Positions 6,649-60,655 of a stretch of DNA of 64,000 nucleotides are shown in pieces (the stretch's first letter is position 1; each line of letters opens with the position of its first letter). Source of the stretch: Reclinomonas americana ATCC 50394 (lineage: Eukaryota); assembly GCA_048213135.1 (NCBI GenBank), contig PS015022.1, positions 395,004 through 459,003 on the forward strand. The letters run 5' to 3'. The notes beneath the pieces were generated by a model. It saw only the letters and a program-made list of their open reading frames with translations, was not told the DNA's origin and did not search any database. The translations under genes and the position numbers were made by a program.

Positions 6649-9277
6649 ATGGCCGACGGCGCAGCAGCAGTTGCGTCACACAACACACACTCACACACAC
6701 ACACTCTCTCTCTCTCTCTCCCTGTCTCACACGATTGAGCACACAGGAAGCGCCTCGTGCACCTCCTCCTCCGCCTCCTCCTCCTCCGGGCACTCAAGCC
6801 GCCGCAGCAGCCGCAGCCGCTGCAGCTGCGGCCGCTGCGGCGATTGGAGCCAATGGAGTGGCAGCAGCAGCAGCAGCGTATCAAGTGCGTCCCTCACCTG
6901 TGTTTGATGGAGGTCGCCGTGCGTTGTTGTTTGCGCTGGGGCGACCGCGACAGGGTGCGACCATCGGGCAGTTGTTGGAGAGTGTGACGGCGGTGGTGGC
7001 GGGCGTGTTGCTGCTGGTGGTTGTGGTGTTGCATGTGACCACGTCGTCGCCGGCTGTTGCGTTGTGTGCTTCTTTGCGTGCTGGTGTGTGTGTGAGAATG
7101 AGAGATTGAGTGACAATCACAATGTGCAGTCGTCGCCACTGAGTGTGGCGCTCAAGGAGAGCGGAGCGGTGGAGAGTGATGTGGTGATTATCATGGTGCG
7201 GTGTGGTTGCTGTGGCTGTGTGTGAGTGAGTGGAGCGATGGTGATGACTTGCTGCGTGTGCGCAGCTGGACTCGCCGGCCTATGTCACGTGGGCGGCTGA
7301 CAAGAGACACTTGGAGGAGCAGCAGCAGCAGACGACCTCTCCTCCTCCCCCTCCTCCTTCTTCTGCGTCTCCTCCAACTCCCAATTCCACATCAATGCCA
7401 CCAGAACCATCATCGCCATCACCACCAACATTGACGACAGTCGAGACACAAGTGGAAGAACCGCAGACAACAACGACAACAGAGCCAGCGACCGAAGAGG
7501 TTGCTACCTCTCCTTCACCTCCCACTCCATCACCACCGCCACCGCCTCCACCGGCGAGTGGTCTGTCGCCGGAGCTGAATGTGCTGGTGGATCTCACGTC
7601 GCACGTGTACACCGACATTGCGGGGTGGTGGGAGGCGGCGCAAAATGGTCTCCCGTCGGTGATGGATTTCGTGTTCAGCAGTCCCACGCAACGACAGCAG
7701 AATAAGAATGCGCGTGCGCAGCAGGCGGCCAGCGCTGCGGCCATGGGTGGCGCTGCGCCGGCTTCGTTTTTGCTCGATCATGGAGCTGAAAATTTGGCCA
7801 TGGTGCCGTACTCGTGGCCACCAAATATCCGGCGGTGAGTTTACTCTTGCGCTCCCGTGGTGATGAAACGAGTGTGTCAATGTGTTTATTGTCGTCATCA
7901 GGTGGGAGCTGAACAGTCAGGAGAAGCGCACGCTGATCGACGCCGCCCACCATGCGGCACTGGACCGCTTGCGTGCCGGTCGATTCGTATTCGCTCGTCA
8001 CCGCGGTCTGCTGCAGCTGCCGCTCGCGTACCTGCGCAAGCACAATATTCCGGTGCGCGTCTTCTCGGTTGACGCCTCGCGGCTGGTGGACAATAGGTGA
8101 GCGCGCGCGCGTGTGTGTGTGTGTGATGAACCCTTCTCCCCCCTCCGGCTCATGTTGCAACTGCTCAGCGTGGTCTCATTCATGCTCGACGAGTGGGTCG
8201 GCTACGAGTCGTACATGCTGCAAGTGCTGTCCCACGTCTTTGGCGGTACAGGTGGCGTCCACTGTCGCTTCTCCACTCGCGTATCAATTAATCTTTGCGC
8301 TTTCGCTGACTGCACACCGCAGGCTTCATGTACCACCCGGAAGAGGATCAAGTGTTCTCACTCGACTCCGAATCGATGTCCTCGCTGAATCCGGTCACCG
8401 ACGATGTGGATTTGTCGGATACGGAGCGCGATCTGGTGATCCGCGTCGGTCACCGCATCACCGCCATGGTCGTTGCTGTTCTGTTGCACGGCGTGTGCGG
8501 CTTCGCCGTGTCGGTGCTGATCAAGGAGACGCACGATCGTATGCTGCACATTATTCGTTGCGTGCGTGGAAGTAGGAGGCACGAAGATGTTGTGACTCAC
8601 GCGTGAGTCGTGAAAATGCAGTCATGATTCACGCCAACACTCGAGCGCGCCGGCAATTTGGTCAGCATCGCGCGGTAATCACGCCGTCCGTGTTGCTGGA
8701 TTTCCTCGGTATAATACCGGTGAGTTGTGCCGAGTGACAGCGTGTGAGCTGCGTGGTTCTCAAGCCGTGCGCGCGTGTTTCTGTGTGCACATGCAGTTAA
8801 TGCTGGGAACCATGTACTTTGTCAGCGAGGGCTTTGACGACACGCGTGTCTGCATCGCCTTTATCTGCATGCGCTGGTGCTACTCGCTGATTGTCGAGCT
8901 GCTCGTGCGGACGTCGGTTCTGTCACCAGAACGGCGGCGCTTCATGCTGCTGACACACCTCTACTGTGTCGGCTATCTGCTCTTTGCGCTGTTGCATCCA
9001 CTGTCGCACACCCTCGTGGCCGCCGTGTGGTTTGTCACCTGGTTTGTTGCGAGTCGGTGTATCATTACTTGTCCTCATCGGCCGTTCGCTGCGCAGCTGT
9101 AGCGCCTTTGTCGGGCACGCCACGCTGCGCTTCATCAACAAGATCGAGATCCCGACATTCCTTCGCGAAGTCGCTCAAGGTGCCGCCGTTCGACCAGTTC
9201 CTCCACGTCCCGGTTCTCCACCACCACCACCAGGGGCAGCAGCACCACCACCAGCAGCAGCGCCAGCGCCACCTTAG
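6649..9277 (+). CDS. TMEM259: Membralin (TMEM259)-like ER membrane protein
   Basis: LLESVTAVVAGVLLLVVVVLH TM segment; RGLLQLPLAYLRKHNIPVRVFSVD; LDEWVGYESYML; KETHDRML; IPLMLGTMYFVSEGFDDTR; RFINKIEIP, in membralin motif order. Confidence 0.8.
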
Positions 9278-9357
9278 AACAAAATGTATTATCAATGTGT
9301 CCTCCTCGTCGTCCTCTACAATATCCGGCGAAGAGGTCAACAGTCAGAGTGGGCGCC

Positions 9358-10659
9358 ATGGCGTCGCCTCTCCGTTGCGCTGTCACACACACTCACTCAC
9401 ACAGTAGGCAAGAGTGCCACCGACTCACATTCTCACGCAAACAGAGGTGCTGGACTCGTATATCGATCGATTTCAAGACGAGCTGGAAGAGTTGTGTGAG
9501 CACACTCTCTCCCACACGCCCTCTCTCTTCGTGCTCACTAGCGATCATCAGGTTCTGTCAATCAGACGAGTTCCGAGCGCTCTCCTCACGACTCTTTGCG
9601 CTTCTCGATGCCGACTGTGACGGGAAGATTGATGTTGGTGGCTTGCATGCGGCACTGGAGGGAGTGTGGCGAACAGTCACACGGTTATATGTGGGCTCAC
9701 CACTTCCGCAACCAACACGACAACAGGCGGAGATCATTCTGCAGTCCATGGACAGAGGTTGGTGGAAAGAGTGGAGGAGAAGAGCTCTCTCTTGCTCATT
9801 CGCTTATCGCAGACAAGGATAACATGCTGGGCGCGGACGAGTTCCTTCCGTTTGTGGAGAAGGCGAGCTTGCAGATCTCGCACGCCATGCTGATGCAGTT
9901 TGAGACCAAGGACGCGCCGTTACTGGAGGAGCGCCTGTTGGCGGTCAGTGGAGGCTTACCTTTGGTTTGGCGGACATGTGTTCGTGTGGCTAACACAGAG
10001 TTTGCGTGCAGTTCACCAAGACCAAGGACTTTTCCGATCTGGTGGTGCGCACGTTTGTGCAACACGACTCGGATCGCAGCGGAAAGGTGTCGTTTTTGGA
10101 GTTTTGGGGCGCCCTGATTTCATTGCGAGACGGTGAGTGATGTGAGGGAGGGAGGGAGAGAGCGGCAAGCTTGACAGCTTCTCATGGGGTTTTCGATCTG
10201 GGCGCAGAGCTGGTCGAGCAGAGCGGTTTGGCCAATGTCGTAATCACCAAAGCCGTGGCCGAGCAAGTGTTCACCGCCGTGCGTTCATTTTCTTTCAATA
10301 GTTCCGACATTTCTCGTGCCACTCACTCGTTGCATCGTGCCGCTGTAGTTTGACAAGGATGGTGATGGGGTGAGTACTCATCCTTTTGTGTCTCTGCCGA
10401 CGACCGCTCACCCACCTTTTCTGCAGGAATTATCGCTGCACGAATACGGCGTGCTCGGTAAGAGTCGCTCCTCTTGTGCGCCACACCTCTTGCAACCCCA
10501 CGCCTCACTGCGCTTGCCTTTTCTTTTGCAGTCACGGAAGTCATCCGACTGGAAGCACGTGTACTCAAACAATCCAATGTGACGCTGCTGTCCGTCATGG
10601 ACGCAGTCGTCGGCGCAGTAGAAGATGCTGCGTCACATATGCGCTTGTCAGCCAAGTGA
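9358..10659 (+). CDS. EF-hand calcium-binding protein (about 4 EF hands in two pairs)
   Basis: Spliced EF loops DADCDGKID, DRDKDNMLGADEF, DSDRSGKVSFLEF and DKDGDGELSLHEY; stop after ...MRLSAK. Confidence 0.8.
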
Positions 10660-10721: not shown

Positions 10722-13622
10722 TTATCGCATGCTATCATTAAACATTTGCCGCAGCTGCACATCCTTGTGCAACTCGCTGCGACGGAACCGCGGCCACGAA
10801 TCGGTCAGCAGCAGTCGGTGGATTTCTCTGCAGCGTGTGGGTGAGGACGCACTGGGGAGAGAGAAAACGAAAGAGTAGAGGTCCAGGACAGCAGTGCACA
10901 CGCGCACCTGTACAGGGGCTCGAACAAATCGACGAGGTCGTCGGTGACGGAGCCAAACACCACATGATCGGCTTGCGGCGATCGCGGCGCTGGCGAATCC
11001 GACATTTCCGTTGCTCTGGCGGGCGAGCGCGGAATGAGAGCCGCCACCTCGCCCACCTCTTGTTGTTGCCTAACGGGAGATCAACACAATATGGATGAGA
11101 TGCCGTGAGTGAGAGGGAGGGAGGATGAAAGAGATCCATCTCACGCACCGTTCACTCTCCTCGTCGTGCGCCACCGGAGCGTTGGCCACCACAGCCGCCT
11201 TGACCACGTTGATACCCAGGCGCGACGCCACAGCACTCGCTTGTCGGCGCGATATGTTGAGTTCTGACGGAGAGCCTGTGAAGGCGCGTGCAAGTCAGAA
11301 TGTAGAGGTCACGACGCGGCCTGCACTGCCGCGACGCACGTACCATCGGCAAGAAACTGAAAGTAAATCGTGCGACCGACATCGTAGCGGGAGGTGATGG
11401 ACTGCAGTTTCTCATACGCCAGCACCGCCTGCGTGACACGCAGTGGGGGGGTCAGAGCTGGAAATTGAAACGATAGTCTGTTCATCTGCTCACCAGCAGA
11501 AAGTGCAAATTCTCGGCGCTCTCCTCCGAGACTGCATCACAACAGTCAGTCGCGCCCTCTCACATCGAGAGGTATGCAGCTTGTCGCAACTCAGGTACTC
11601 CTCAAACGCGTGGCGACCGGATGGATCGTCGTCGGTAATCATCAGCTCTAGGGCACTCGGCGCTCGTCGATTTTCCGAGTCGATCGGGTACCGCTGCTGC
11701 GGGCCAAACTGCTTCTTGGTCCGGTGATCGCGGAACGACTGGTACAAGCTCAGCAGTACGCCAGTGGCATTGATCTATGACGTCCACTGTCAGCATGGAA
11801 GTAGCTGTTGTTCCGCTCCGTGTGTGCGAGACTCACCGCCAGCGACAGAATGCCGTTGCCGATCCAGGTGGCCTGGGTGACGCCGGTGATTTTTGTCATA
11901 GTCAGGATGAACGAGGCCAGCAGGTACACGCCCCACAGCATGTAGATGGTGATGAGTTCGACCGAGACGCCGAAGGGGTCGTGAACTGGGCGAGAAGGGA
12001 AGGGGGCAAGGGGGAAGGGGGAAATGGGAAAGGGGGAAAGGAAAAGAGAGAAGGTGGAGGAAGAGAGGATGGAGAAGAAAGAGAGGGAAAAGAAGGAGGA
12101 AGGTGATCAAGGAGTTGAGAGACGACGCAAGCAGCAAGGAGGCAACAACGAGGTTGCAAGCGCAAGGGACGAGAAAGCAGGGTGAACACGAACGCACAAA
12201 AGAAAGAAGCGAAGATGCAACAACAACAGAAGCATAGAGCGACGCGCCATGCCGAATAGGAAGAACACAGAGGCGTGCAGTGAACTCAGTGCACACAGTT
12301 GTACAGAGGCAGACAGGGAGGGAGACCGGGAAAGAGAAGGGAAAGAGAAGACAGCGAAGCACTTTAACGACACAGGAGAGTGGCAGACGGGCACAAAACG
12401 AGAGTACAACGCATGTCGCACACCACCGATACTCACGTTTCCTTGCAAACAGGCACATGATGATGGAGAAGACGGCAAACACCGTGCCAAACACCATGGA
12501 CCTTATTGGTTTGAACAGGCAAAGAGGTTAGCACACAAGTGGCTCCACAGAGAGTCACCGAAACCAGCGCCCACGCAACACGACTCCCACGGCAATCATG
12601 GTCGCCGTACTGCAGACGCCAAAGATGGCCGCCGTGACCGCCATGATGCCACAAAAGAGCAGCAGCAGCGACACCGAGCCAAGCAGCAGTCCCCAGTTGC
12701 TGATCGAGAAGCGAACCAAGCGCAAGGAGCGCGACAAGATGATGCGCTGCCCGCACGGCGACACTCGCGACTGGCCGAGAATCCTGCGCAGCAGTGGTCC
12801 CAACTGATAATGCAGCTTCCGTTTGCCCGCTGCTGGCACTGCAACTCGTCCATCCACCGCCTCCGACGCCTCATCTGCAGTGGCCTCGCTGCTCGTGCGC
12901 AGGTGCGCCCCTCTGTGTGCGTGGCACACAAGTCGGCGAGGGAAACAAAAAAGATGCGCATACAAGTGACTGCTGCGAACCCGTGCTCAGCGTCGGCCCA
13001 CGACGCATCCTGCATGACATCAGCGCGCCATCTTTGTACGCGATTGAGCACCCACAGGCGATAGCCACTGAGAGTGAGCGAGCGAAAGGGAGACAAGAGT
13101 GAGGAAGGGAAAAGAAAGATCCGAACAAACAACAACAACTGCAACACTGACCGCAAGATGCATGTTGTCTCAATGCTCGACTGTGTGGAGAAGGCAATGA
13201 GTGGATGCGTGATTATGAGAGGAGGCAGTGGAGCTGACCATGATGATCGGAGGGAGCATGATCACCGCCCAACATCTGCAATCAAGCTAGAACATGAGCG
13301 CGCACTTCTCCTCCACTCTCTTTCTCTCTCCCTCTGCTCGCACACGCGCAACGCTAATGTGGAGTTCTGAATGAGTGTGTTCTCTTGCAGCACACACACG
13401 TCCAGTTGAATGAGCGCGCACAGGAAGAGTGAGTAGAGAGTGAGGTGAATGCTCCGTCGTCTGCAAAGAAGCAGGGCGAGAGTGAGCGAGTGAGAGTGTA
13501 GGAGAGAGAAGGAGAGACAAGACTGACCGCACGGGTTCACTGTTGCGCCACACAATGACGAGAGCGGCCATCACGGCAGTAATGCCGAGTGTGACTGACA
13601 AGTAGATGGTGATGTTCACCAT
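10722..13622 (-). CDS. Seven-transmembrane RGS protein (7TM-RGS, AtRGS1-type architecture)
   Basis: Seven hydrophobic segments with RRRS after TM1, LRGYRL after TM3 and DPFGVSVEL before TM6. RGS box follows: GRHAFEEYL..EESAENLHFLLAV, IYFQFLADGSPSELNIS, DLFEPLYREIHRLLLTDSWPRFRRS. Confidence 0.85.
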
Positions 13623-14486: not shown

Positions 14487-14567
<81 letters not shown>

Positions 14568-14657
14568 GTACGGTACGGTACGGTACGGTACGGTACGGTA
14601 CGTACGTACGTACGTACGTACGTACGTACGTACGTACNNNNNNNNNNNNNNNNNNNN

Positions 14658-15014: not shown

Positions 15015-22301
<7,287 letters not shown>

Positions 22302-22736: not shown

Positions 22737-25686
22737 CTATCTCGCCCCCCTCCCGTACGGCCTCAGTCGACTGGACAGCGGGACGTCGGCTCGGCTGGGC
22801 GGCTGCGCCTCTTCACCCGTGATGCGCTTGATCTCGCGCAGCGTGTCGGTCATTTGAAGACGCAGCTCGGCCACGTCACTGACGGTCCACGCTCTCTTGC
22901 TGTCGCCACCGAAGGTGCTGTTGACGCGACTGCCACTTGCGTGCGTCACGGCGGAGGCATTGGTGCGACTGGCGACGACTCCACCGCTGTACCACTCCTG
23001 GCGACGACGTTCAACGCGCTGCGCGACACACACACCAATGAGATGGAGCGCAACACGATCGCCACCAACTACACAAGACCTCTTCGTCGGCTGGTGACTT
23101 GGGTTCCGGCAAGATGTCGTCCTCCTCGGTGGCCGCCAAGGAAATCAGCCGGTATTTTTCGCCAACAGTCAGGCGCTCGAGATCTGGCGGCAGATTCTCG
23201 CCACACACTGCGCGCAAAAACCATGAGTGCCTCTCGCTTGACCAAAAAAGACAACTATAGCAAAAAAAAGGACGCAACAGCCGGCGAGGCAGACGCGGAA
23301 CGCACGAATCCTGGCGACCTCCGTCCGAGCAAGCAGGCGCGCGTGATCCTCTTCCACCACTGCAATTCACAGAACTTGAGTCCAGCTGTCGCCTCCTTCG
23401 CTACCATTCTCTGTCCCTTCTCCGCAACATCTTGCATATGCCGACTGCCGCAAGCGTGACTGCGCCTCGGCAATGAGACGCTGCTCACGTTCCGAGTGCG
23501 CCAGTCGCGCCTGCTCGCCTGGTGACATTGCCTCGTCACCGTTCAACTCACGAGCGGCGGCCAGCATAAACTCCTGCACGAGCTGCATTTCGTGCTCCAC
23601 GCCCACCGGATTCGCCAGGCGCACCACCCGCCGTCTGTACGCCTCCTCACTGGCCTTCTCGCGCACAGAAAGTGGCACGCGCGGATCCGAGCGCACAGGC
23701 TCCGATACCACGCACAGCTGATCCACCAGGTCCACATGCAGAACACGACCGTCGACCAGCTGCACAAACACGCTGCGACCGTCGCGAAGCAGCGAGAAGC
23801 GTCCGACGCCCTCGAGCCACCGCTCCACCTTGTCGGCCACAAACGCATCACCGGCGGCTTTCGTGCCCGCGGAAGCCGGGGCATCTGACTCTGCCGGAGC
23901 ATCGTCCTCCGCCGCGGTGGTGAGGTTGCTCGGGCGCAGTGCCGTGTCGATGGCTCGTCGTGTGACAAATCGACACATTGCGTCGACCACAAACACGCGG
24001 TACGAAGTGGAGCTGGTGGACACAAGGAAGGAAGGGTGAGTGGTCAGGAGAAAACTTCAGGTTGGCGAAAAAAGGGTATGTAACATGGCGCGCGAGGCAG
24101 CGGTCAGTGTCAATGGCAACCCGTCAAGCGGGAACGACCGGTCGAACGAGGTGCCCGGCAGCCAGATACGCACTTGCCCACTGGCCCAGTCGAGCATGAA
24201 TAGTGCTCGGTAGCCGCAAGGGAAGCGCCAGTCGAATGGCACATCATCTTCGGCAGCACCCTCCACCTCTGTCTCGGCAGGCTCACTGCCGACCACGTTG
24301 GCACCCATAAAGCCGTACACCTGGAGGTTGATGAGCAGCCGATTGGGGAAGACAGAAGCACAAGGCTTTCTTCTCACTTACAAGGTACACGCTCACTCAC
24401 ACTCTTTCTGTCTCGCGCTCTCGATTTTCTTCACGCTAGCAGAACATTTATCTCGTTCACAGCACACCCCTCACCAAACGCTCGATCCACGCGGACATAA
24501 CCGTTCTCGCTCTCGCCCATCGCGCACACTCCACAACTCTCACCCATTTTCACACTCGCCGCACACATTCTCCTCGCTCTCTATCTGTCTCTCCCCATTC
24601 TCCCCCACCCCCTTCTTCTTCTTCTTCTTCTTCTTCTATCTCACTCTCTACCTGTCTGTTTCCATCATCTCTCCCTTTTCCCCCCTTCGTCTCTCTTGCA
24701 CTTCCTCACCAACTTGCTCCTCTTGTCAAACACCATGGCCGTGCCCCGTCGCACGCACACCACCGCATGCGACAACTGCTGCTCCGTCGGCGGCTCCGGC
24801 CACGCCACCGCATCGGAGACAAGAGGCATGGTCTCCGGCACCTCCACCCACCACGAGTTGCGAGTGGACTCTCGATCTGCCCTCGCTCCCGCCCGCTGCG
24901 GCGGTCCGCCCGACCGCACCTCATCGCCCTCCACCGAGTGCCGCAACGCGATGCGCAGCGCTGGCCAGATCCACGCCGGCACAGTGCTGCCACCGCCATC
25001 GTCGTCATCATCAACATCGCCAAACACAATCACTTGCGATACCCACGTGCACATGCGAGTCGACAGCGACGACGTCTGCACCAGCTGGTCGACATGCTCC
25101 CTCACCAGTGCCGGAAACGTAATGGTGCATGATCGTCGCGACACGTGCAGTCGCAGCGACACCGTCTCACACCGACTGCTCACTGTCACCGTGCGGGTGG
25201 ATCGCGACAACGTGACAAACTCGGGCGCATCGACCCACTCGCACCGAAATGGGTCGGGGAGCTTGGAGTCCTGCGTCGACAGTGTGAGAGAGAAAGGGAG
25301 GGAAAGGGAGAGAGAGAGGAGGAGGAGACGCACCAGCACAAAGAGAGGGGCGCGTTGATCGAGCAGCTGGCGACAGAGGTATGGTCTGTGGTGATTGGAG
25401 GGCAGCGAGTTGCGCAGACGCAGGGCGGCACCCACGCGTGCGCGGAAGCGACTGAGTGCGAAGACGGAGAGTTGGCGCGTGGCCGTCAGCTCGTCTCGTG
25501 CGTTGCGCTCGATCACAGTGACGCGATCGCCGTTGGGCGCGAGAGCGATCTGTTGGCCTGTGTGTGTGAGTAATGGTGAGAAGGAGGGAGGGGGAGGGAG
25601 AGGGAGGGGAGATAGGAGAGAGGTGTACCATCGTCAAAGGTGGCCACCACCACGCCGTTGTCGAGCAGCCAGCCCTCGCAGAGCAT
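22737..25686 (-). CDS. C5orf34-like protein (DUF4524/DUF4520-type)
   Basis: N-terminus MLCEGWLLDNGVVVATFDDGQQIALAPNG...RQLSVFALSRFRARVGAALRLRN...PYL and later GVGRFSLLRDG..VFVQLVDGRVL resemble animal C5orf34, recalled from memory. Confidence 0.7.
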
Positions 25687-26106: not shown

Positions 26107-26178
26107 GGTCGTGTCGTATAGTGGCCAGTATACTCGGTTGTGATCCGATTGACCCCCGTTCGATTCGGGGCACGACCA
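26107..26178 (+). tRNA. tRNA-His (GUG)
   Basis: Cloverleaf: acceptor GGTCGTG/CACGACC; D arm GTAT-AGTGGCCA-GTAT; anticodon arm CTCGG-TTGTGAT-CCGAT; T arm CCCCG-TTCGATT-CGGGG; A73. A T-run Pol III terminator follows (TTTTGTTTTTT). Confidence 0.92.
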
Positions 26179-29400: not shown

Positions 29401-32400
29401 CGATCGAGGCGACAGTGGTTGAGGTGTGGCCTCGGCGGGTGACACCGCGAGAGGAGACACGGGTCGGGTGAGAGCGTCACGCGACGGAGCCGACAAGTGC
29501 ACAACAGGCAGACTGGGAACATGGCGAGGCTCCGGAATGAGTGGTCCCGCAGTCGGTGGCGCGTGCACGTCCAGTGGCGGCAGCGCGCTGCCGCGTGGAG
29601 GTGGTGCAGCAGGTTTCAACTCCGACGAGGGCGTCGGAGGTGTGAAAAACACATCGTCACCGGCATCGATGGAGAGCACAGATAGCGGAGTGTGATGCTG
29701 CGGTTGTGCACGAGGTGCAGCCTTGGCTGGTGATGCGCTGCCGTCCAGCAGGCTGCGCGCCTCTGGTAGAGAGTCGCCACTTGCGCTGGCGTCGATGGCG
29801 GGAGGCCGTGGACGCGATGCGGGTGTCGGCGTCATTGTGGTAGCTTGCTTCGGCTGCGTGTAGTAGACACATGGCGATGAGAAGACAAGAGGCGTGACGA
29901 GCACTCGTTCAACACGACGAACCGACTGATCCGTGGTCTTGGGTGCAGTGTGGCCCTTGAGCCTCAACTTGGCCACGGCGCCAAGCACCAACGCTGCTCC
30001 GTCGACTTGCACAGGCGGCATTGAACCCTCGGCAACCACACGCAGGATGGACGATGTGGGCTCGGAACGCAGACGCAGCGGTGGTGGTCCCAGGCGCTGC
30101 ATTTCCGCACTGGCGACTCCCTGACTGATGCCGCCCCGCACGGCGCCACTGCGCCTCTGCGATGCCGACACAAAGAATTCCGGTAACGCGCCGTGCCCTT
30201 CGGCCATATGACCGGTGAACGACAGTGGCCGAGAGAGCAGGCGCAGGGTCGGCGGACCATCCAAATGCGTGTCACGAATGGCGATACCAATCACTCGTCC
30301 CTTGGCGGCATTTGCCTTGACGAGTCGATTGGATTGTGTTGGTACCGCAGGTTGCTGCGGGAAACAGGAAAGAAAGAGAATGAGCGACCAGACGACGACT
30401 CGCGAGTGGAGCCACAGGCAACGACGCAACTGTCTCACGCTCCGACTGCGCAGACTGCGGAGCCGATCGTCGTGTCCGCGGCGATGGCAAGTCGTCGAAC
30501 AGTGGATGTGGCGACTGCGGAAGTGAGACAGACGGCGATTGCAGTTCGGCATCACCATCGTCGCTGTCCACATCTTCCAGCTGATGATGATGATGACGAC
30601 GATGGCACACAGACATGAATTCAGAAATAAGCACAATCTCAATCAACGGCGGGTGTTGTGAGTGTGTATGTGCAACACAAACCGCTTCAGTGGGGGTGAC
30701 ACGCTGTACCAGTGTCTGCGACTGAGCCGAGGTGGAGCGAGGTGATTTTTTCTGCATCATATCATGTTGAGACACGTGATGGCCTGGCACGCAACACACG
30801 GCGGATTGAGACACAAACCGACACTGGGAGCCGCTGCGCGCCAGGTGATACCTGCAAGAAGCAGACTGGTCAGCAAACGCACACCACCATATATTTACTG
30901 CTGCGACGAGTGACGAACCGAGTCATCATCGTCGAGCTCAGAGGCACTGGGTAGGCGCAAGGGAGACGGCAGGGCTGCGGTGCGTTGCAGCTGACCAGGG
31001 ACTCCACCCCACAGCTGCACAGGTTCTGCGAACGGTGTCACCACCTGTGGCATAGAAAGCGAGGCCGAGTCAAAACAAAGCGGATGCGAGGCGACAGGGG
31101 ATGGGTGGAGCACGCAACATCTTCCAGGTGCATGACGGGCTCCAGTTCGTCGGGTGTCATGGCAGGCGGGGGCGAATCGGGAGACGACGGGGTTACCGAC
31201 GGCGCGCCGATGAGCGGCGACGGAATGTGACCTCCGCGGTCTATGTTGCCCTCCTCCTGAGGCGTAACCACGTAGCCGCGAGAACGGAACCGATCGGCTC
31301 GTCTGTGGGATGCCGTGAGATGCCGTCCACATCACATCATCATCATCACCACCACCACCGCCACAGACCTCTTCAAGTAGCGGAACCACAACTGCTGCAA
31401 AGCAAAGGCCGCAAAATCGCACGCTTCCACCCACTTGCGTACGCGATAGCCGCGCCAAACAGCCTGTATCATCTTGGCTGCACGATGTTCGCGGCAACGG
31501 CTGTGCATACACAAATCAGCAAGTGCGCACAGCATGAACTGTCGCTGTCGTCGACTCACCGTTGTATTCTCAGCCGTCGGGCAAACATCTGCAATCGCAC
31601 CGCCGCCATCTCCCTGCAACGCCACAATCAGCATAATGCTCAGACAGACACACAAACACTCACGCGCGCACGAAACCACAAGTACCTCTTGCGCAAATAG
31701 TGGCCGACCACACGCTCAATTTTTTGCACGGCCGCACGTCGCAGTCGCTGCAACATTCGGCGCTGCACCACTGGCGTCACGAACCGCTGGATAGTCGTCA
31801 CCGTAGACACGAGCAACGAATAGTTGCGTCGTAATCTCCATCCGCGCACCAGCGCCTGTATTCTCGTGGCCGCCAGTCGTCGCACACGAGCAATTGCAGC
31901 CTGGGTGCGTTAGGCGCGTGTGAGGGACATCGTCAGAGAGAGAGAGAGAGAGGTTGTGCAGGAGTACCGCTTTGCGAATGTCGCTCGTGGTCCATCCCTC
32001 CATTAGTTCTCGGAACAGAGTTTGCGTCAAAGAGTCCGCCCGCTGTGCGCACACTTCGTGCAGTCCACTCTCCATCTCCATCTCCATCAGTGACAAGCCA
32101 TAGTCATCACCATCATCATCACCATCGTCCTCCTCTTGCTCACCGCCGTCGCTTCCAGCTCCACTGTCATTGCCTGGATCGGTGCCGCTGGCGTGACTGA
32201 GATCGTCACTGACTCGCAGTCGACTCCGTGCGTCTCCCGACTCTACCTCCTCCTCCTCCTCCTCCTCGTCAGTGTCATCCAGTTCGCCGTGCGCCGCCAG
32301 TCTGTCCCGCTCACTCTTCTTGGCGAGCAGTGTCGATTCGCGGGCAGACTATGTCGCTCACGAGTGAACTCACAGGAACTGAGCGATAGCAAAAGACACA

Positions 32401-34962: not shown

Positions 34963-34997
<35 letters not shown>

Positions 34998-35142
34998 CGA
35001 GAGAATGAATGAATATTCGATGTATGAGTGTGAGTGTGTGTGTGTGCGTCTGTGTGTGTGTGAGAGAGTGAGACTGATTGAGTCGCGATCAGCACATGGA
35101 CGCGTCTCGGACATTGAGGCATGGTTGCGAGGTGCGTTTTTC

Positions 35143-35173
<31 letters not shown>

Positions 35174-35721: not shown

Positions 35722-35782
<61 letters not shown>

Positions 35783-36645
35783 GAGACGCCAAGAAGATAT
35801 GCACGGAGACAGAGGGAATGGTCCAGGAAGAAGGGAGGATTTGCAGAAAGAGACAACTGGGAGGGCTGTGTGTGTGCGTGCGTGTGTGCGTATGTGTGTG
35901 AGAGAGAGACTCAGGGGAAAGAGTTTACACGAGCACGGGCACACAAACAGATAGACGAAAGAGGAGGGAGAAGAGTGGACTTGCAGAAAAGTGACAACTC
36001 TGAAAACAAAGAGGGAGAGAGGAGGTGCGTGAGTCCTGCGGTGCACAGACAGAGAATAGCGTCTCTGGTGATTGCACAGCTGACCAGTCACTGCCTGTTA
36101 TCTGTCGCAATCTTCTCTTCTCAGTTTCACTTTATTATTTCACATCTCTGCTGTCTGTTTTTCTCGCTCTCACTCTCTTTCTCTCATGTCACTGTTCCTG
36201 TGCCCTCGTTGTCAGTGGAAAGTCTGCTCCATCGAATATTTCGTGTGGACCCGTGAGACCCCCCAGTTGTCCCCCGAGGCCCTTGATCGCTCCTCAGCGC
36301 ATTCTATCTCATCCCCAGAGCACCCTTTCTGCCTCACTTCCAGAGCACTTTCTCCCTCACTTCCAGATCACCATTCTCTCTCACCCACCATTCTGCCTTT
36401 CCTCCAGAGCACTCTCTGCCCCACTGCCAGACCATCATTCTCTCTCACCGCCAGAGTAACAGTCTGTCTTTCCCTCAGAGCACCTTTCTGCCTCACCTCC
36501 AGGGCACCCTCATGTCTCGTCACCCTTCTCCCTCTCCCTCACCCTGAACTCCCTTCTCCCGGTGCATCGGTCTCACTTTCCCCCCACTCTCTCTTGCAGC
36601 ACCGACCTGCCGCTGGAGGCCACGTGGCTCCCGAACGCCGAATGA
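34764..36645 (+). CDS. Protein with an N-terminal ubiquitin-like domain
   Basis: Spliced MAIRVQIVTTWDETLVCEVE-AHGRVSDIEAWLR-EVHHVQGHRISFGGKHLEPSEHLSVVGIVDGSTVTL fits the beta-grasp pattern. Downstream exons are uncertain because of an N gap. Confidence 0.6.
36260..36560. repeat. Degenerate intronic minisatellite (CCAGAGCAC...TTCTGCC units)
   Basis: Repeated CCAGAGCAC / CCAGA(T)C(A)C...ATTCTCTCTCACC units. Confidence 0.65.
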
Positions 36646-36759
36646 GCATCCACTCAGGAGAGAGTGCATGTGTGCGTGCAGTGGACACGGCGCTCTATTT
36701 TTGTTTGTGATGGAGAGAGAGAGAGAGAAGAATGTATAGGGTGTGCGTTGCGTTGATGA

Positions 36760-38158
36760 TTAATTTACAGCGGCGGCACGGAGTGCTAGCAGTCGCGCGT
36801 CTTCGGCGAGGAAGCAGCGTAGAGTTAATTGCGGCAGTGGCTCGCCATGATCGTCGCCATCCTCCTCTTCTTCGTCTTCGCCCTGCAGCTCCTGGCGCAT
36901 CTCGTGCAGTGCGTCAATGGCCACCATCAGAGCGCGCCACTCCCACGCCGCGCAGCTGGCCGTGTTCCACTCGGCCGGCCAGATGCGCACGGAGCCGTCC
37001 TCGCAGCCACTGACCACGCGTCCGTCGAGCAGAAAGGCCACCGAACGCACCTCGTCGTCGTGGCCCTGCAGAACCGCGAGGCATTCGCCCGTGGACACGC
37101 GCCACACTCGAACCGTGTGATCTGCACGACCCACGATCAACAAACAAACAAAAACTCTCCTCCCTTTCCCTATCCCACAACAACAAACCTCGCGACCCAC
37201 TGGCCAGGAACTGGCCGTCGGGCGAAAAGGCCACGCTCGTGACCCAATTGGTGTGCCCGGAGAACCAGCGACGCGACTCACCCGTGGCCAGATCCCACAG
37301 CCGCAAGCGATTATCGTGCAGCGCGCTGACCACTGAGGCGCCATCGGGCGACAACGCCATGGTGTCCATGATCTCCTCCAGATGCTGCAGCACGCTCTCG
37401 CCCGTCTCCACCTCCCACTTGTGAAAGACGCAGGTGACAGCCGCCCAGCCCGCCGACAGAATAACAGGCTCGTCGGCCGAGGCCACAGCCAGGCCGACCA
37501 GGATGTTACCGGCGACATCATGCGGGTCGAGGACGCGCACCACCGATCCATCGCCAGCGTGCAACACATAGATGGCACCGTCGATCGTGCCCGCAAACAC
37601 CTGCTCTCCGTCGCTAGAGACCGCCACGGAGTGGATCGCTGCATCGCCGCCACACCGCCCACCATGCCCTCGCTCGCGCGGCCACACTCTCCGCGCACTC
37701 GCTCCTCCACTACGATGGGGCACAACAAAGAGCGGCGAGAGATCCCACATGAACACTCCATCGTCGTCGCTGGAGACAAGTCGCATGCCATCGACGGGCG
37801 AGAAGACCACCGAGTTGACAGGGCGATCGCACTCAATGGAGGCCACCAGCATGGCGGTCTCAGAGTCAAACACGCGAACGCGGCAGTCGGAGCAGGCGGT
37901 GGCGAGGAGTTGTCGCGCGGGAGGCATCAAGGCCCACTGAGAGCGGGACGAGTGGCCAGTGGAAGGCCACGTCACGGGCGGCGACACGGCCACGCTGGTG
38001 ACGTGGCGAGGGTGGGTGGGAACGTGTGGCATGCCGGTCCAGCGCAGTCCCGGCGCCTTCTCGAACAGCGACTCGGAGTCCGAGAAGGAGGAGGGGCGCG
38101 CATTGTCGCGATTGTCGTCGCCTGCGATGCTTGTGTCGCGGGTTGTGCAGGCGCCCAT
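36760..38158 (-). CDS. WD40-repeat protein with N-terminal MGAC acylation motif
   Basis: GHTNWVTSVAFSPDGQFLASGS and GHDDEVRSVAFLLDGRVVSGCEDGSVRIW; a single intron near 37125-37188. Confidence 0.85.
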
Positions 38159-38439: not shown

Positions 38440-40524
38440 TTACTGAGCGCGGCAAGGAATGCCGCCACCGCCACCGCCACCCCGCTCGTCACCGTCGTCG
38501 TCATCGCTATCGTAGGCCGCACGGTAGCTGGCGGCCGATGGACCTTGTACGTAGGCTGTGCGACAATCAGCAACACAGGCGATGGAGGGGAAGAGTGGGA
38601 AGGAGATACGATCGCGACGAACCCGACAACAGCACCTCGTCCACGTCCATGGCGGCCGACTCCACCGCCTCCGCCTCACCCTCGGCGGTGGCCTCTGCAG
38701 CGGCAGCGGCAGCAGCTGCCGCACCCTTGTTCTTCTTATTCTTCCGGTTTCCGGAGGCACCAGCTGCAGCAGCTGCGGCTGCTGCTGCGGAGGCGCCTGC
38801 GGGTGCTGGCGACGGTGGTGCTGGCGGTGCGTGCGCCGCCAGTGGTCGCGGTGGGAGCACGCGCTCGAGCTGCAGACGCACCTCAGTCGTCATGTCCTCG
38901 GCCGTCGGCCACTCAATGTTGAACTGTGCGCACGCAATGCATGTTAGACAAGAGCGATGCCTCGCGACAACTTTTCTTCCGCACCTCAATGTGCAGATTG
39001 CCCTTCAACGTGCCGCCGGTGTTTGGCAGCGGCATTCCGTGACCAACCACGGTTCGGCGACATCCTTGTGTCAGCAGTTCACCCGGGGCGGTCGAGAGGC
39101 GCAGATTGCGCCCATCAATGTGCTGCATGACAAACACGGTGCCGCACAGCGCCTCCACCAGTCGCACAGTTCGCTTCACATGCAAATCGTTTTCTCGTCG
39201 CTCAAACACCGGATCGCTCTCCAGCTGCAACACCACCACCACGTCGCCCGACTCGGCATTCGGCTGCCCAAGCGATAACAATCAGCAAAGGGACGACAAC
39301 GGGTGCGATATGAACGGGACGACGAACCGCCATGTCGCTCTCGCCCGTCAGCTTGATTTGCGTCTCGTGCTTCATGCCCTGCGCGCACGGTTAGGTCGGA
39401 GCCGTGAAGCACAAACAGCAGCAGGGGAGAGCCATACCGGCTCCACATGCACTTCCAGCGTCTTGACCTCGCGCGCCACCCGCGTTCCCGCACACGACGA
39501 GCACGCATGCGCCGGATCAATCACCACACCACGCCCACGGCACATCTGACACGCAATGCGCATCTGCTGAATGAAGAACGCCTGTTGCACCAGCGCTACA
39601 CACGCCGAGTGCGTCAGACAACTGATCATCATCATCATGCACGGAGGAAACCAGAGAAAAGAGGCACACCAATTCGGAATCCAGCTCCGCGACACACCGA
39701 GCACTTGCGCACGGCATCGGGCGAGTCGGCGCCAACTCCGCTGCACGTGGCACAGAAGCACTGCCGACTCAAGCTCACCGTCCTTCGTGTTGTGTAAGCA
39801 ACAACAACTGGACGACTGACAACAAAAAAACCAACTCACTTGGTCGCTCCCTTGTACAAGTCGGCCAGTGTGACACGCAGTGGCACAGCACGATCCTCAG
39901 TGCGTCGCTTCGGCATCGACGAGCTCACACGTTTGCCTACATGGTAAAAGTCAGTCACAAAAGTGTGTGCAGTTGCTGTTTGCATGTGCGCGAACCCGCA
40001 AGTTTCGCGTCGTATTGCTGCACATAAGAGAGAGAGATGGCAGTGGTGGGTTGTCACAATGAGAGACAGAGAGAAAGTGTGTGTGTTTTTGTGTTAGTGA
40101 TGTGCATGGTCACAAAACTCACCGCGCGCAAGTCGGCATTTATCAGCGTCTCCTTTGCTGTGGTCATCTTCTTGAAGCGCTCCTCGGCTGCTGCGCGCTC
40201 GTCCTCCGGCAAGTGGCCTGTCCGATCGGGATGACAGTCCTTGGACACTACGCGGTAGTTGCGCTCAATCTCCTTGGTGGTCGCCGTCGGTGACACCTGC
40301 AGCAGCTCATAGTATGTCTCCTCCTTTTCCTCGCCTTCCTTGGCCTCTCCCTCCTCGTCGTCGTCATCACCACGAGAGCCACTGGGATGATTGTGATGGT
40401 GGTGATGGTGATGGTGGTGGTGGTGGTGGAAGTGGTCCTCCTCGTCCTCCTCCTCCTCGTCGTCGTCGTGACCGGGGCGTCCGCCACCGAGAAGATCTTC
40501 AAAGGAAAAGAACCCGCGCGACAT
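38440..40524 (-). CDS. Divergent class A DnaJ/Hsp40 with an acidic/His-rich N-terminal extension
   Basis: J domain YYELLQVS...CHPDR; four CxxCxG repeats (CATCSG, CSVCRG, CQMCRG, CSSCAG); CTDs GDVVVVL, FERRENDL, GHGMP..GNLHI; ends in CaaX CRAQ. Confidence 0.9.
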
Positions 40525-40613: not shown

Positions 40614-41339
40614 ATGAGCCGCGGTGGAAGCAGCAGCGAGGAGAAGGACTTGTACGAGATCCTTGGAGTTGCGCGCTGTTTTTTTGTGTTGAGCGTCGTC
40701 GACCATTAAAAAATTGCTGACTTGTGTGTGTGTTGACAGGTGGCCAAGGATGCCACCGATAAGGAGATCACCAAGGCGTATCGCAAGTTGGCGTTGCAGG
40801 TGCGTTGCTGCTCGTGTCTGTGTGAGAAAGAGCGCGTGTGAGTGTGTCGTCATCGACATGCTCTCTCTCTCGCGCGCGCGCTCTTTGTGTACACGTGCTG
40901 ACTGAGCATTGTGTGGTGATGCAGTACCATCCTGATCGCAACCCGAGTCCCGAGGCGCAGGAAAAGGTGTGTGTTTTTGTCGCTCTTCACACCCACGAAA
41001 GGGCAGTTTGATGTTGTCCTCAACACACTCTCACACACACTCTTTCTTTGTGTGCGCCACAGTTCAAGGAGATCCAGGGCGCCTATGAGATCCTGAACGA
41101 CTCTGACAAGCGACAGGTGAGGCAGACGGGTTGGGCATTTGCGTCATCGTCGACCTGTCAAGCTCTCTCTCTTGTCGTCCGCTGCACTACTTTTGGTGCT
41201 TCCATATGTTGTTGTTGTTGTTGTCTGGGCGAGTGTGGAGAGTCACTGTGCAAGGTGGTGTCGAGTGTCAGAGACTGATTGATGACGCCATCGAAGTGAC
41301 TGACGTGGCGAGTTCGATGAGGGAACAAGCTCACACACA

Positions 41340-41383
<44 letters not shown>

Positions 41384-42825
41384 GCAGCACACAAAGTAGT
41401 GAGAAGCAAGAGAGCGATCAACAGCATGTGGTATTGATCTGTTATCGCGTGTCACGTGTTGTGCAGACGTATGACAAGTATGGTCTGGAGGGTCTGCGTG
41501 GCGGTGGCATGGGAGGTGGTGGTGGTGATATTTTCGACATGCTGTTCCGCGGTGGTCGTCCCGATGGTCCCAGCCGGCCGAAGCGCACCGAGGATTTCGT
41601 GTTCTCACTCAAGTGCACGTTGGAGGATATGTACATTGGTAAGAGAGCACGTTGTCGGATCACAGGTCGGCTGCCTAGTGCTCACGCAGTTTCTGTTTCA
41701 TCTTGGTGGGCAGGCTCACGCAAGCGCATTGCCGTCAATCGCAACCGTGTGTGTGTCACGTGCCAAGGGTGCGTTTCTTGACAGTGTGAGGATGATATGG
41801 GGCAGCAAGCAAGACTGACGTTCACTGTTCGTGCAGCTCGGGCGCCAAGTCCAAGGATGCTGTGAAGCGCTGCAGTGCTTGCAACGGCAAGGGCATCCGA
41901 GTCAGTTGCGTCGCGCGCCCCTCGACCAGCCCACCACTACCTCTCTTCCATGTCTTACATGCACACGCGTACACACACGCAGTCATTCAGCGCATGGGTC
42001 CGCTGGTGCAGCAGTTCCAGACGCGCTGCGACGAATGCCAAGCCAAGGGCTTCACCATTTCTGCGGATCAAGTGTGCGAGAGCTGCAACGGTGCACGAAC
42101 GGTGCCGGAGCGCAAGCTGCTGGAGGTGTTTGTGGAGAAGGTCTGTTGCTCTATTCTCTCGCTCACCCTTGTGCCTTCATCTGAACTCGTTGTTCGTCGC
42201 TTCACAGGGTATGCGCCACGGACAAAAGATCAAGTTTGCAGGCGAGGCCGATCAGATGCCAGAGCACGAGGCTGGTGATGTAGTGGTGGTGTTGGAGCAG
42301 AAGCCGCATGATCTGTTTGAGCGCAAGGAGAACGATCTGGCCATGCTCAAGACCATCAAGCTGGTGGAGGCATTGTGCGGCTTTGAGTTTGTGTTTGAGC
42401 ACTTGGACGGACGCAAGGTGCTGGTCAAGTCGCAAGGTGATGTGGTCAAGGACGGCGATCTGCGCACCATTGTGGGTGGCGGCATGCCATTCCAGCACAA
42501 CGTCATTCAAAAAGGCAACCTGCACATCAAGTTCGCCATTGAGATGCCGACGGCCGCCGACATCACACCGCAGGTGGCTGCGCAGCTCGAAAGGTTGCTG
42601 CCGGCACGACCAGAGCGACCAATGGCCACTGAGGATATGGATGAGGAGGAGCTGCGACGTTGCGGACTTTTATTCTCAAGTTTTCTCTTTTTTGCGAAAT
42701 CGCCACTCACACTCTCAATCACAGCATTCACCCAAGGCGCCAAGTCTTCAGCACATCGCGAGGCATATGACAGCGACGACGACGAGGGTCCGCGCGGCCA
42801 GCGTGTCGGATGCGAGACGCACTAA
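40614..42825 (+). CDS. DNAJA: Class A DnaJ/Hsp40 (DNAJA/Ydj1-like)
   Basis: DLYEILGV...YHPDRN...FKEIQGAYEILND; G/F region GGGGDIFDMLF; four zinc-finger CxxC repeats; CTDs; ends AYDSDDDEGPRGQRVGCETH. Confidence 0.95.
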
Positions 42826-46522: not shown

Positions 46523-46719
46523 CGTGCGCGTGAGGTCAGTGTGTGTGTGAGGGAGAGGGGAGGGAGGGAGGGAAGGAGAGAGAGGAGAGAGGAGAGAGGG
46601 AGAGAGAGAGGGAGGGAAAGAGAGAGAGAGAGAGAGGAGGAGAGAGAGAGGAGGGAAGGAAGAGAGGAGAGGAGGAGGAGGAGTAGTAGTGTGTGTAGTN
46701 NNNNNNNNNNNNNNNNNNN

Positions 46720-58900: not shown

Positions 58901-60655
58901 CTGTTGGTTACCCTCTTTGCTCACCATCTTCGCGCTGCAGAATTCGGGAGAAAAGTTGTCATGTTCGCGGAAAAGCAACAACACACTTTCGCCCTTTGTC
59001 GCACGAGTTCGGCAAGCGTTTCGTGACTGTTACGGCCTTCAAGCCTCGTTGGTCCTCAACCGTCGTCTTGCGGAGGCTGAGATTGCCCGCGCCGTCAAGT
59101 GGTGCACTGAAAGAGGTATTGCGGACCACGCTCTGGTCGATTTGGTGCGCATGCTCCATGGTGTGCTGAAAAGTGTGGTGCAGCTCTGATGGAGGCAAAG
59201 GTGGAGGAAAGGAAGGGAGAGATGGAAGTTGACGCCAGGGATGATATACATGGAGACGTGTCAGGCGCAGGCTCAGCTGAATGGAGCAAGGCACGTGCTT
59301 CACGATTATTGGGCAGGTGCCCTCTTGCGTAGTATTCTAATTGTGCGGATTCACAGCGCCGTAGGAATGGTCACGCAACGTTGAGTGGGGAGGAGCAATC
59401 GATGCTTGAAAAACTGCTAGTTGCGTTTGTTGGCGATCATTGCTCACCTCAAAGCCGTGTTACTGACGTTGTGCTTATTCATGCGGATGCAGTGCTGCAA
59501 CCGGAAGAGGATACTTGTCAAGACATTTGGTATCAGGGCGTCCGTGGTACTTGGATCCACTGTGTGCCTTCATCAGCGGATTCTCTTCCGACTTGCTTGT
59601 GAAGAATGCGGAATACCGTTGGAAGGGCCGAGTCGCCCATCATCCGCCGTCATGTATGCATTTAGCAAGAGTACTTGCAACATTGCAGAGCACGTTCGCA
59701 AAGTAACAATCAAGTCAGTGGAGGGTGTGCTTGAACGAATCACCAATTACATCGAGGTGAGTGTTAGCATGTTGCTCTGTTCATGATAGTCCGTGGCGAG
59801 CCACGTTTCTGATCCTGCTCCGTGCACGTGGTGTATGTGGGCGTGTTTGATTATTAGAAGAGCGGTCTTCGAGGACCTGCGCTCTTGGATGCTGTAGAAA
59901 GACCGCTTATTGTGCTCGACAACTGCGGCTACTCGGAGGCATGTGATCACGTTGCGTTTTGTTATGTGTATTAATGATGTCGACTCACTCTCGTAAGGGG
60001 ACAGGAGTCTGCAAAACTGGCGAAGAACAGAGGCAAAACAAATGTTCTTCTGCCATTTGTCACACAGGCCATGCAGACTTTCCACAACTGTCCTGGCCTG
60101 TTCGCCACTCTGCTTCGAGACGGGTTCCTCCCCAAGGAGGAGATTGTACGTGTCGGTGTGTGGTATACACCTACCCCGATTGGTGTCTGCTGGCCTGTAT
60201 GCTGACATGTTTGCTGATTCAGCGCTTAGTGGCGGAAAGGTGGCGAAGGAGATGGTGAACAATGTGGATATGCATATGGAAGAAGAAGATGATGAGGATG
60301 GTGTGAGAGAAGACGAGGACTACGACGACGAGGAGAAAGATAAGCGATCGAAGATCAAGGAGGAGGTGGTGGACCTTGTTGCGAGGAGAAACACACTACC
60401 GTGCATGGACATCGACCTTCCCGCACCGGTGCGTGACTAGAGTGGAACTGAGTGGTATCAGGAAGGGGAGAGATTGATAGAGAGAGAAGAAGAGAGGGGG
60501 GAGAGCAGGAAAGGGGGAGAGATGTCGACAAGTGACGGCTGGTGGATTAGAACACGGGAAACAAGGCAGTCAGTATCGATGATTGATTTCGAAGCACAGC
60601 GTAAGCTGAGACTGTGTACATGGCTTAGCTGATTGCTGCGCTCGCAGGAGGATGA
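55989..60655 (+). CDS. Orphan, probably nuclear protein with three tandem copies of an unrecognised ~160-aa Cys/His domain
   Basis: Three homologous exon sets (264-nt exons at 57291, 58467, 59493; 81-nt exons at 57626, 58796, 59858); NLS-like PPKKKK; acidic linkers; IKEEVVDL. Final exons at 60441-60600 and 60648-60655. Confidence 0.75.

Follow-up and report, generated by a model that had tools for sequence, protein, structure and literature searches.

A second 5' splice-site motif, W/GUUGCGU, in introns of Reclinomonas americana, with the pattern of a register shifted by one base

Introduction

The subject of this report is a class of 5' splice sites, or donors, that begin with GTTGCG and are found in a 64,000-nucleotide stretch of the genome of Reclinomonas americana ATCC 50394 (contig PS015022.1, positions 395,004 to 459,003 of the forward strand), referred to throughout as the window. 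At the level of genomic DNA, the evidence shows that the introns starting in this way are true GT-AG introns of the U2 type, that they carry a distinct second 5' splice-site motif, W/GUUGCGU, where W is A or U and the slash marks the exon-intron boundary, and that this motif is under selection of its own. The statistics speak more for a shifted U1-type duplex with a non-standard reader than for a bulged duplex, the minor spliceosome or the relic of a mobile intron family. The specific mechanism proposed, in which the motif would be read by pairing displaced one base from the cleavage site on a U1 RNA with an ACGUAC-type 5' end, stands an even chance of being correct.

Junctions fixed by homologues

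The window has a G+C content of 58%, and its genes are densely packed, each with many short introns. The closest protein homologues share about 50% identity at most, and the top matches are animal DNAJA2 and opisthokont ABCC proteins. DnaJ and ABCC genes were aligned with 7 DNAJA and 8 ABCC homologues by a protein-to-genome aligner whose sole splice rule was GT...AG, with no donor profile. As a second check, BLASTP was run exon by exon, and the gap across each junction was compared with expectation. Eight GTTGCG junctions are residue-exact by homologues (40668, 41905, 20628, 16954, 16757, 16612, 15754 and 15515; donors are denoted by the first base of the hexamer on its own strand), and five of these (40668, 41905, 15515, 15754 and 16612) had been listed in an earlier note on this DNA. 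The features of U2-type GT-AG introns are found here, namely an exact conserved frame on removal at the eight junctions together with a branch site and a YAG acceptor. The four arguments from reading frame made in the earlier note, at SIA/IIPQDP, QE/NGANLS, AQR/WLG and ILG/VAK, proved right by both homologue alignment and BLASTP.

The DnaJ gene on the forward strand (40629-42822) contains nine introns, three of which carry GTTGCG (40668, 41905 and 42659), and the other six donors are G/GTGCGT, G/GTGTGT, G/GTGAGG, G/GTAAGA, G/GTGCGT and G/GTCTGT. At 40668 the exons are contiguous by BLASTP in two of three homologues, and the donor is kept when GC donors are allowed; at 41905 the observed gap of 1 equals the expected gap of 1 in all three homologues. 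The region around 42659 is poorly conserved, and the three homologues that do not support this donor take a GT at 42680, while the gene finder described below assigns 42659 a posterior of 1.00. In the ABCC gene, the exons around 16757 are contiguous in both informative homologues, and the gap at 16612 is 0, again in both informative homologues. At 16954, with GC donors allowed for four homologues, one keeps the GT, two move to a GC three bases on and one does neither.

Other placements of these boundaries were tried and rejected. GC-AG introns starting three bases downstream are disfavored, in that the GT is still chosen at conserved junctions with GC donors unpenalized. Introns starting with TT, with both boundaries moved by +1, would change the conserved RWL to RGL and IIPQDP to SIPQDP. 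The concern raised in the earlier note, that the introns might be cut at other nearby GT or GC sites, is answered in part by these alignments: GC is not preferred, and the sites at 42659 and 16954 are ambiguous in some homologues.

The forward-strand DnaJ gene lies head to head with a second DNAJA-type paralogue on the reverse strand (38800-40350). Two intron positions are common to both genes, one in phase 1 at residue 171 of the homologues and the other in phase 0 at residue 224. The intron at residue 171, in the same phase in both, starts A/GTTGCGT in the forward-strand gene (41905) and G/GTGTGCC in its paralogue. Because the paralogues differ at this shared position and phase, introns switch donor class in place.

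Frequency of GTTGCG as a donor

There are 78 copies of GTTGCG on the two strands of the window, and dinucleotide shuffles give 56.5 +/- 8.1, with 2 of 100 shuffles reaching 78. Of the copies in sense or antisense orientation, 50 are sense and 24 are antisense, an excess that matches the number of donors. Introns were called on the coding strand of 16 regions with a donor-agnostic gene finder, which combines codon log-odds with an acceptor profile and allows any GT as a donor. Among the 142 short introns obtained, GTTGCG ranks first as a donor hexamer with 15, followed by GTGAGT with 13 and GTGCGT with 10, and an expectation-maximization (EM) step run over the 256 GT-hexamers estimates 17.3 GTTGCG donors. 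The earlier note would have given up its claim had the hexamer been no commoner than a degenerate GTNNNN motif predicts. The 15 of 142 compare with a background in which GTTGCG makes up 1.2% of the GT sites on the sense strand (binomial p = 2e-10), and a wrong-strand control with the same program returned GTTGCG in 4 of 322 introns, which is the background share. Errors of the gene finder, being random misplacements, cannot generate one specific hexamer.

In all, 24 GTTGCG donors were counted in at least 12 genes. Eleven of these had not been listed before: 859, 686, 11590, 16757, 16954, 20628, 23278 and 31118 on the reverse strand, and 7056, 8557 and 9046 on the forward strand. The class makes up 15/142 introns in the donor-agnostic set and 22/128 in a curated set; its share is 9/40 in the homology set, the genes of which were picked because the earlier note had flagged them. 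GTTGCG thus accounts for roughly 10-17% of window introns, or about one in eight. The earlier note had called it a major class on the basis of 15 sites. All 15 carry the hexamer on the strand given; 13 are supported as donors to varying degrees and two (9374 and 60378) are unverified. As the commonest donor hexamer, the class is a major one, and its size had been understated.

Anatomy of the GTTGCG introns

Positions +3, +5 and +6 are U, C and G, respectively, in every one of the 24 donors, and the base at -1 is confined to A (12), T (8) and C (4). The absence of G at -1, which had been pointed out for the 15 listed sites and is true of all of them, extends to the full set (0/24, against 71/124 other donors; p = 2e-8) and is also seen when only homology-supported donors are compared (0/9 against 24/31; p = 4e-5). 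Compared with the 54 copies of GTTGCG that are not donors, the donors are enriched in A at -1 (12/24 against 9/54; p = 0.005) and in T at +7 (16/24 against 16/54; p = 0.003). Selection on the exon base is also visible in codon choice. All 12 phase-0 cases follow codons that end in A or T (CAA, GCT, TTT, AGA, GAT, GGA, CTT and CTA), against a genome background in which 74% of third codon positions are G or C (p = 4e-8 with the amino acids taken as fixed). Several of the codons concerned are rare, with usages of 2-15%. Ordinary phase-0 donors have G at -1 in 33 of 51 cases.

The motif is narrowly defined. Its one-mismatch neighbors are not used as donors (GTTGAG 0/31, GTTGCA 0/63, GTTGCT 0/56, GTTGTG 0/55, GTGGCG 0/119), with the sole exception of GTTTCG, for which 4 of 22 copies are used. 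These minor GTTTCG donors are found at 5226, 15964, 16342 and 33095 on the reverse strand, with A, G, C and A at -1, respectively. A G/GTACCG donor at 15368 is supported by 8/8 homologues; since both GTTTCG and GTACCG donors occur, there are other donors with G at +6.

In other respects the two classes of intron are alike. Median lengths are 72.5 nucleotides (nt) for GTTGCG introns and 70 nt for the others, and the branch motifs are CTCAC, CTCAT and CTGAC in the former and CTCAC, CTGAC and CTCAT in the latter. A YTNAY branch motif is present in 20/22 GTTGCG introns, where its median distance to the 3' end is 18.5 nt, and in 80/106 ordinary introns, where the median is 18 nt. The YGCAG acceptor is characteristic of both classes, ending 15/22 GTTGCG introns and 54/106 others, a small difference. 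Across the introns of the window as a whole, the 3' signals are strong and uniform, with YGCAG in about half and CTCAC or CTGAC about 18 nt upstream. A GCAAC box that could pair with the 5' end is not enriched within the intron or the next exon (5/22 against 19/106).

The bodies of the GTTGCG introns are unrelated to one another. A comparison of 128 introns at E <= 1e-3 returned 24 hit rows, which represent simple repeats and one overlapping model, and no pair of GTTGCG introns. The tandem paralogues at 56.9-59.7 kilobases (kb) provide a direct illustration. Their three copies have conserved peptides on both sides of the intron (..LL before and R/C-C-N.. after, the slash here denoting alternatives), and their introns of 92, 69 and 73 nt cannot be aligned, yet each begins GTTGCGT, so the heptamer has been retained though the intron bodies have diverged. 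An introner or other mobile intron family was accordingly rejected as an identity for these introns.

The register of recognition

When the GTTGCG sites are scored on the profile of ordinary donors in the normal register, their median is -4.4 bits and 0/24 exceed the 95th percentile of the null. When the same profile is read one base further on, in the +1 register, the median rises to +4.1 bits and 21/24 exceed it, and ordinary donors on their own profile reach a median of only 2.0 bits, below that of the shifted GTTGCG sites. The proposal in the earlier note that H/GTTGCG is G/GTGCG moved by one base therefore holds as a pattern. The resemblance includes the exon, with A or T at -1 in 20/24 GTTGCG donors and at -2 in 11/14 GTGCG donors and 9/19 GTGAG donors, and the two donor forms can be aligned as W-G/G-UGCGU and W/G-U-UGCGU.

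The companion proposal of routine dual-register recognition fared less well, in that the class is not a general second register of standard U1. At the matching slot, the ratio of A to C is 25:17 in ordinary donors and 0:24 in shifted ones (p = 5e-7), and GTGAGT is the commonest ordinary donor, yet its shifted form GTTGAG is unused. Duplex energies were calculated with RNAduplex, for which the 5' end of standard U1 was taken from PMC4856993. With this U1, typical ordinary donors are predicted at -7 to -11.5 kcal/mol and GUUCGU at -5.9, the unused GUUGAGU would get -4.8, and the GUUGCG sites get -0.3 to -1.7 in any register. A plain shift on standard U1 is disfavored because GTTGAG is never used and the predicted duplex with the motif is negligible.

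The favored explanation, to which we give an even chance, is that W/GUUGCGU is read through pairing that is offset by one base relative to the cleavage site, on a U1 of the ACGUAC type. The G at +1 would take the slot normally occupied by the G at -1, the U at +3 would take that of the U at +2, GCGU at +4 to +7 would fill slots +3 to +6, and the A or U at -1 would take the slot of -2, with cleavage still occurring at the sole available GU. Given the strict C at +5, the RNA that pairs with the motif probably carries a G facing this position. The U1 5' end would then be of the ACGUAC type, either as the sole U1 or as a second variant also serving W-G/GUGCGU donors, and such a U1 would explain both the strict C at +5 and the unused GUUGAGU. 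With it, GUGCGU is predicted to pair perfectly at -13.0 kcal/mol and GUGAGU to reach -8.3. For A/GUUGCGU, RNAduplex picks the shifted register at -6.3, and the values fall to -5.0 with U at -1, -3.6 for a site without U at +7 and -1.6 for the unused GUUGAGU.

Several points weigh against this reading, in addition to the negligible pairing of the motif with standard U1. The ACGUAC-type U1 is, for this organism, a prediction and not an observation, and Thecamonas and the Mamiellales combine a preference for C at +4 with a standard U1 (10.1101/2022.06.08.495308). With the ACGUAC-type U1, a version of the site with G at -1 is predicted to pair in a bulged register at -10.7 kcal/mol and is never seen; since this duplex is predicted to be far better, thermodynamics alone fails to explain the ban on G at -1. 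The U at -1 found in 8/24 donors would not pair with U10. In addition, GUUACGU, with only 5 copies in the window, is predicted to pair equally well as GUUGCGU. The bias at -1 that the earlier note had proposed to check is firm relative to other donors, and for G it is borderline relative to non-donor copies of GTTGCG (0/24 against 9/54; p = 0.05). The gene-finder models match 28-31 of 40 homology-supported introns exactly. The sample is also small, comprising a single 64-kb window in which all of the splice junctions were inferred from DNA.

A bolder claim is that R. americana represents the first eukaryote with a register-shifted 5' splice site as a major selected class, served by a co-evolved ACGUAC-type U1; this is advanced tentatively, as its chances fall somewhat short of even. 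The U1 in question could be a second variant that also serves W-G/GUGCGU donors, with a standard U1 serving GUGAGU. Were this claim to hold, the choice of cleavage site would be routinely uncoupled from the U1 frame across a whole genome.

Alternative explanations

The near-invariance of the hexamer, whose one-mismatch neighbors are almost never donors although ordinary donors are degenerate, would also suit a dedicated second U1-like small nuclear RNA (snRNA) or guide RNA with a 5' end fully complementary to W/GUUGCGU, serving only the GTTGCG class. The negligible pairing of standard U1 with the motif agrees with such an RNA, as do the co-evolved U1 5' ends of Entamoeba and Mastigamoeba (10.1101/2022.06.08.495308). 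It is nonetheless an unlikely explanation. The position-by-position fit to the shifted ordinary profile is more simply accounted for by one shared reader, and branch site, acceptor and length are alike in both classes. No snRNA was found in the window with Rfam, at the gathering threshold and at E <= 1, where the matches comprise a tRNA-His and low-complexity chance matches only. Short of an exhaustive search, no eukaryote is known in which two U1 specificities each serve a major class. The invariant UU at +2/+3, followed by a GCGU that matches slots +3 to +6, could alternatively reflect a duplex of U1 (and U6) in the normal frame with one U of +2/+3 bulged, a register known for human sites, of which 68 are predicted (Table 3, PMC4856993). 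Such a bulge is improbable here. A G at -1 should pair with C9 and be favored (-10.7 versus -6.3 kcal/mol), yet it is found in none of the 24 donors; synonymous codon choice selects A or T at this position instead, and the enrichment of A at -1 is left unexplained.

Recognition could also be governed by later steps or by proteins, such as a U6 ACAGA box offset by one base, U5 loop 1, factors of the U1C or LUC7 type, or a binding protein, in which case the class would be an extreme form of the "intron-side" 5' splice sites that do not need G at -1. An anti-correlation between G at -1 and the intron-side consensus is general (AG//GUNNN versus NN//GURAG; PMC11732430), and U1 pairing may matter less here because the introns are short, with a median of 70 nt, and have strong branch and acceptor signals. 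We regard this as rather improbable, in that known intron-side sites carry G at +5 and accept any base at -1, whereas the motif here has G at +6 and is selected for A or T at -1. Moreover, the shifted profile matches position by position, including the exon base, which indicates a continuous duplex across the junction, as in a U1 footprint. The class was likewise rejected as an instance of the NN//GURAG sites of Parker et al., which have R at +3, G at +5 and any base at -1: in 24/24 donors these two intron positions are U and C, with G at +6, and the -1 base is never G.

U12-type introns have a rigid donor of the RTATCCTT type and a branch site of the TCCTTAAC type close to the 3' end. A minor-spliceosome origin was rejected, as the donor here is GTTGCG and the branch site is CTCAC, CTCAT or CTGAC at the ordinary distance. 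Finally, the sites might not be used as donors at all, being artifacts of the gene models, or their common start might be the relic of one mobile intron family. The imperfect match of the gene finder to the homology set and the derivation of the junctions from DNA leave some room for the former. Either view is very improbable, however, as the homologue-fixed junctions are residue-exact and a one-base move destroys RWL and IIPQDP, the wrong-strand control sits at background, no two GTTGCG introns have matching bodies and the paralogues keep only the heptamer.

Individual donors and other features of the window

The GTTGCG sites considered are collected in Table 1. Read-through of the intron at 51490, the length of which is not a multiple of 3, meets a stop at codon 5. 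The intron at 9046 is in frame without a stop codon, and a rival parse exists. The donor at 6670 was used only in the first pass of the gene finder, and the second pass used a different parse. For 9374, an ATG at 9358, a phase-1 donor and an acceptor at 9444 keep the frame open, and the gene finder took 9343 instead. At 60378, a stop codon follows after about 66 nt if the frame is left unspliced. A further GTTGCG at 33442-33447 on the reverse strand is unconfirmed; only the first pass of the gene finder used it, as the start of an intron of 43 nt.

Table 1. GTTGCG sites of the window, with the supporting evidence for each as a donor
Position	Strand	-1 base	Intron length (nt)	Gene or context	Support
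40668..40673	+	A	72	DnaJ(+) intron 1 (ILG/VAK), phase 0	6/7 homologues
41905..41910	+	A	78	DnaJ(+) intron 7, phase 1	7/7 homologues
42659..42664	+	C	66	DnaJ(+) last intron	4/7 homologues
20623..20628	-	T	61	ABCC	7/8 homologues; BLASTP contiguous 4/4
16949..16954	-	A	60	ABCC	4/8 homologues; BLASTP contiguous 3/4
16752..16757	-	T	58	ABCC	8/8 homologues, 7 with acceptor 16700
16607..16612	-	A	62	ABCC (AQR/WLG)	7/8 homologues
15749..15754	-	A	77	ABCC (SIA/IIPQDP)	8/8 homologues; BLASTP contiguous 4/4
15510..15515	-	A	57	ABCC (QE/NGANLS)	6/8 homologues; BLASTP contiguous 4/4
57199..57204	+	T	92	Tandem paralogue 1 (..KLL/RCN..)	Paralogy
58398..58403	+	T	69	Tandem paralogue 2	Paralogy; read-through leads to stop
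59420..59425	+	A	73	Tandem paralogue 3	Paralogy
48124..48129	-	A	150	Fibronectin type III (fn3)-repeat gene	Only in-frame GT candidate; read-through leads to stop
51490..51495	+	A	76		Only in-frame GT candidate
854..859	-	A	88		Only donor-agnostic candidate
681..686	-	C	82		EM posterior 0.94; donor-agnostic pass took another GT
7056..7061	+	T	74		Donor-agnostic pick among 9; read-through leads to stop
8557..8562	+	C	65		Donor-agnostic pick; read-through leads to stop
9046..9051	+	T	51		Possible donor, uncertain; donor-agnostic pick
11585..11590	-	A	59	RGS-like membrane protein gene	Donor-agnostic pick
13347..13352	-	C	77		Moderate; EM step only, posterior 0.64
23273..23278	-	T	71		Moderate; first-pass donor-agnostic, EM posterior 0.67
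31113..31118	-	T	104		Donor-agnostic, posterior 0.99
6670..6675	+	A	77	Just after candidate start codon	Moderate
9374..9379	+			Plausible first intron of EF-hand gene	Unverified; start-codon logic only
60378..60383	+				Doubtful donor; sole model requires 270-nt intron

Several of the genes lack recognizable relatives in the searches made. A search for a Utp13 homologue gave no match at E <= 0.001, the representative protein search with the exon at 8797-9045 gave three matches, repetitive and unrelated, and Pfam assigned no family to the exons of that gene or of the tandem paralogues. Because the homologue searches failed, the donors in those genes were placed by the gene finder or by paralogy. 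The gene at 6.6-9.1 kb may resemble membralin, a likeness that no tool supported. A metagenome scan with a DnaJ exon returned a single distant locus, at 28% identity.

The tandem-paralogue stretch on the forward strand (56900-60400) has a lower G+C content (0.52), weak coding scores and no Pfam family. The fn3 gene (46752-49900, reverse strand), in which introns are very few, gives the highest coding score of the window; its product is large, rich in Ser, Thr and Ala, and contains fibronectin type III repeats. A tRNA-His (GTG) gene is located at 26107-26178 on the forward strand, between two protein genes on the opposite strand. Six runs of N (1109-1128, 14638-14657, 35428-35636, 46700-46719, 56301-56347 and 61572-61656) look like assembly gaps, one of them within the region after the ABCC gene and one within the fn3 gene region. 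The regions 34500-36800 and 60700-64000 give no convincing codon-model signal on either strand, despite long open frames, and could be non-coding or contain genes with different codon usage.

Comparison with known systems

In the organisms of the papers cited here, G occupies +5 of the donor consensus, and U1 registers other than the canonical one are exceptions (1.5% of sites in human); in this window, the hexamer that ranks first among donors combines U at +3 with C at +5 and G at +6, and G is selected against at -1. Such a genome would represent a natural experiment on how the cleavage site is fixed independently of the U1 duplex. It would also bear on the limits of co-evolution between U1 and U6 and their targets in intron-rich species, and on whether one cell can run two donor "dialects". 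In practical terms, about one intron in eight would be misplaced here by gene predictors that had learned donors of the GTNNGT type. A full-text literature search found no GUUGCG donor class among the matches listed, which dealt with primers or human variants, a result that does not show that none has been published.

The closest parallel to the shifted pattern is found in the human shifted-register 5' splice sites described by Roca and Krainer (2009), work that PMC4856993 cites and tests. These have U at +3, no G at -1 and the consensus one base downstream, all as in the window, and a U1 frame one base off the cleavage site, as is proposed here. In human, however, the validated non-canonical registers add up to 1.5% of sites (3119/201,541; PMC4856993), whereas here one motif accounts for 10-17% and is the commonest hexamer. 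Unlike the human sites, the motif is nearly invariant, needs C at +5 and has negligible pairing with standard U1.

Atypical donors with a matching U1 are known from the Archamoebae, where Entamoeba has a U1 5' end of AACAAAC and Mastigamoeba balamuthi has ACGUAC together with GUGCGC donors (Roy and Bowser, 10.1101/2022.06.08.495308). They resemble the present case in their atypical donor consensus and in having C at the slot facing U1 position 5. In contrast, one transformed consensus there replaces the usual one, and no second, register-shifted class is described in the text of that preprint. Their U1 ends are also reported, whereas the ACGUAC-type U1 is only predicted in R. americana.

Exon-side (-1G) and intron-side 5' splice signals are generally anti-correlated (PMC11732430), and the GTTGCG class shares this anti-correlation. 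The intron-side class has G at +5 and a free -1 position, whereas the class described here has G at +6 after UU and is selected for A or T at -1. Two sets of introns within one genome have been described in Ostreococcus lucimarinus, one of them with a GTGCGTG donor, an ACTGAC branch site and a CGCAG acceptor and the other with a GTRNGT donor, and it was asked whether two splicing machineries exist there (Irimia and Roy 2008, PMC2483917). The window likewise contains two donor consensus sets, and it also has donors of the GTGCGT type, branch sites of the CTGAC type and YGCAG acceptors. In Ostreococcus, the sets reside in separate genome compartments, their branch sites differ and neither is register-shifted. 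In the R. americana window, by contrast, the classes are mixed within genes, as in the DnaJ gene with 3/9 introns, and all of the 3' signals are common to both.

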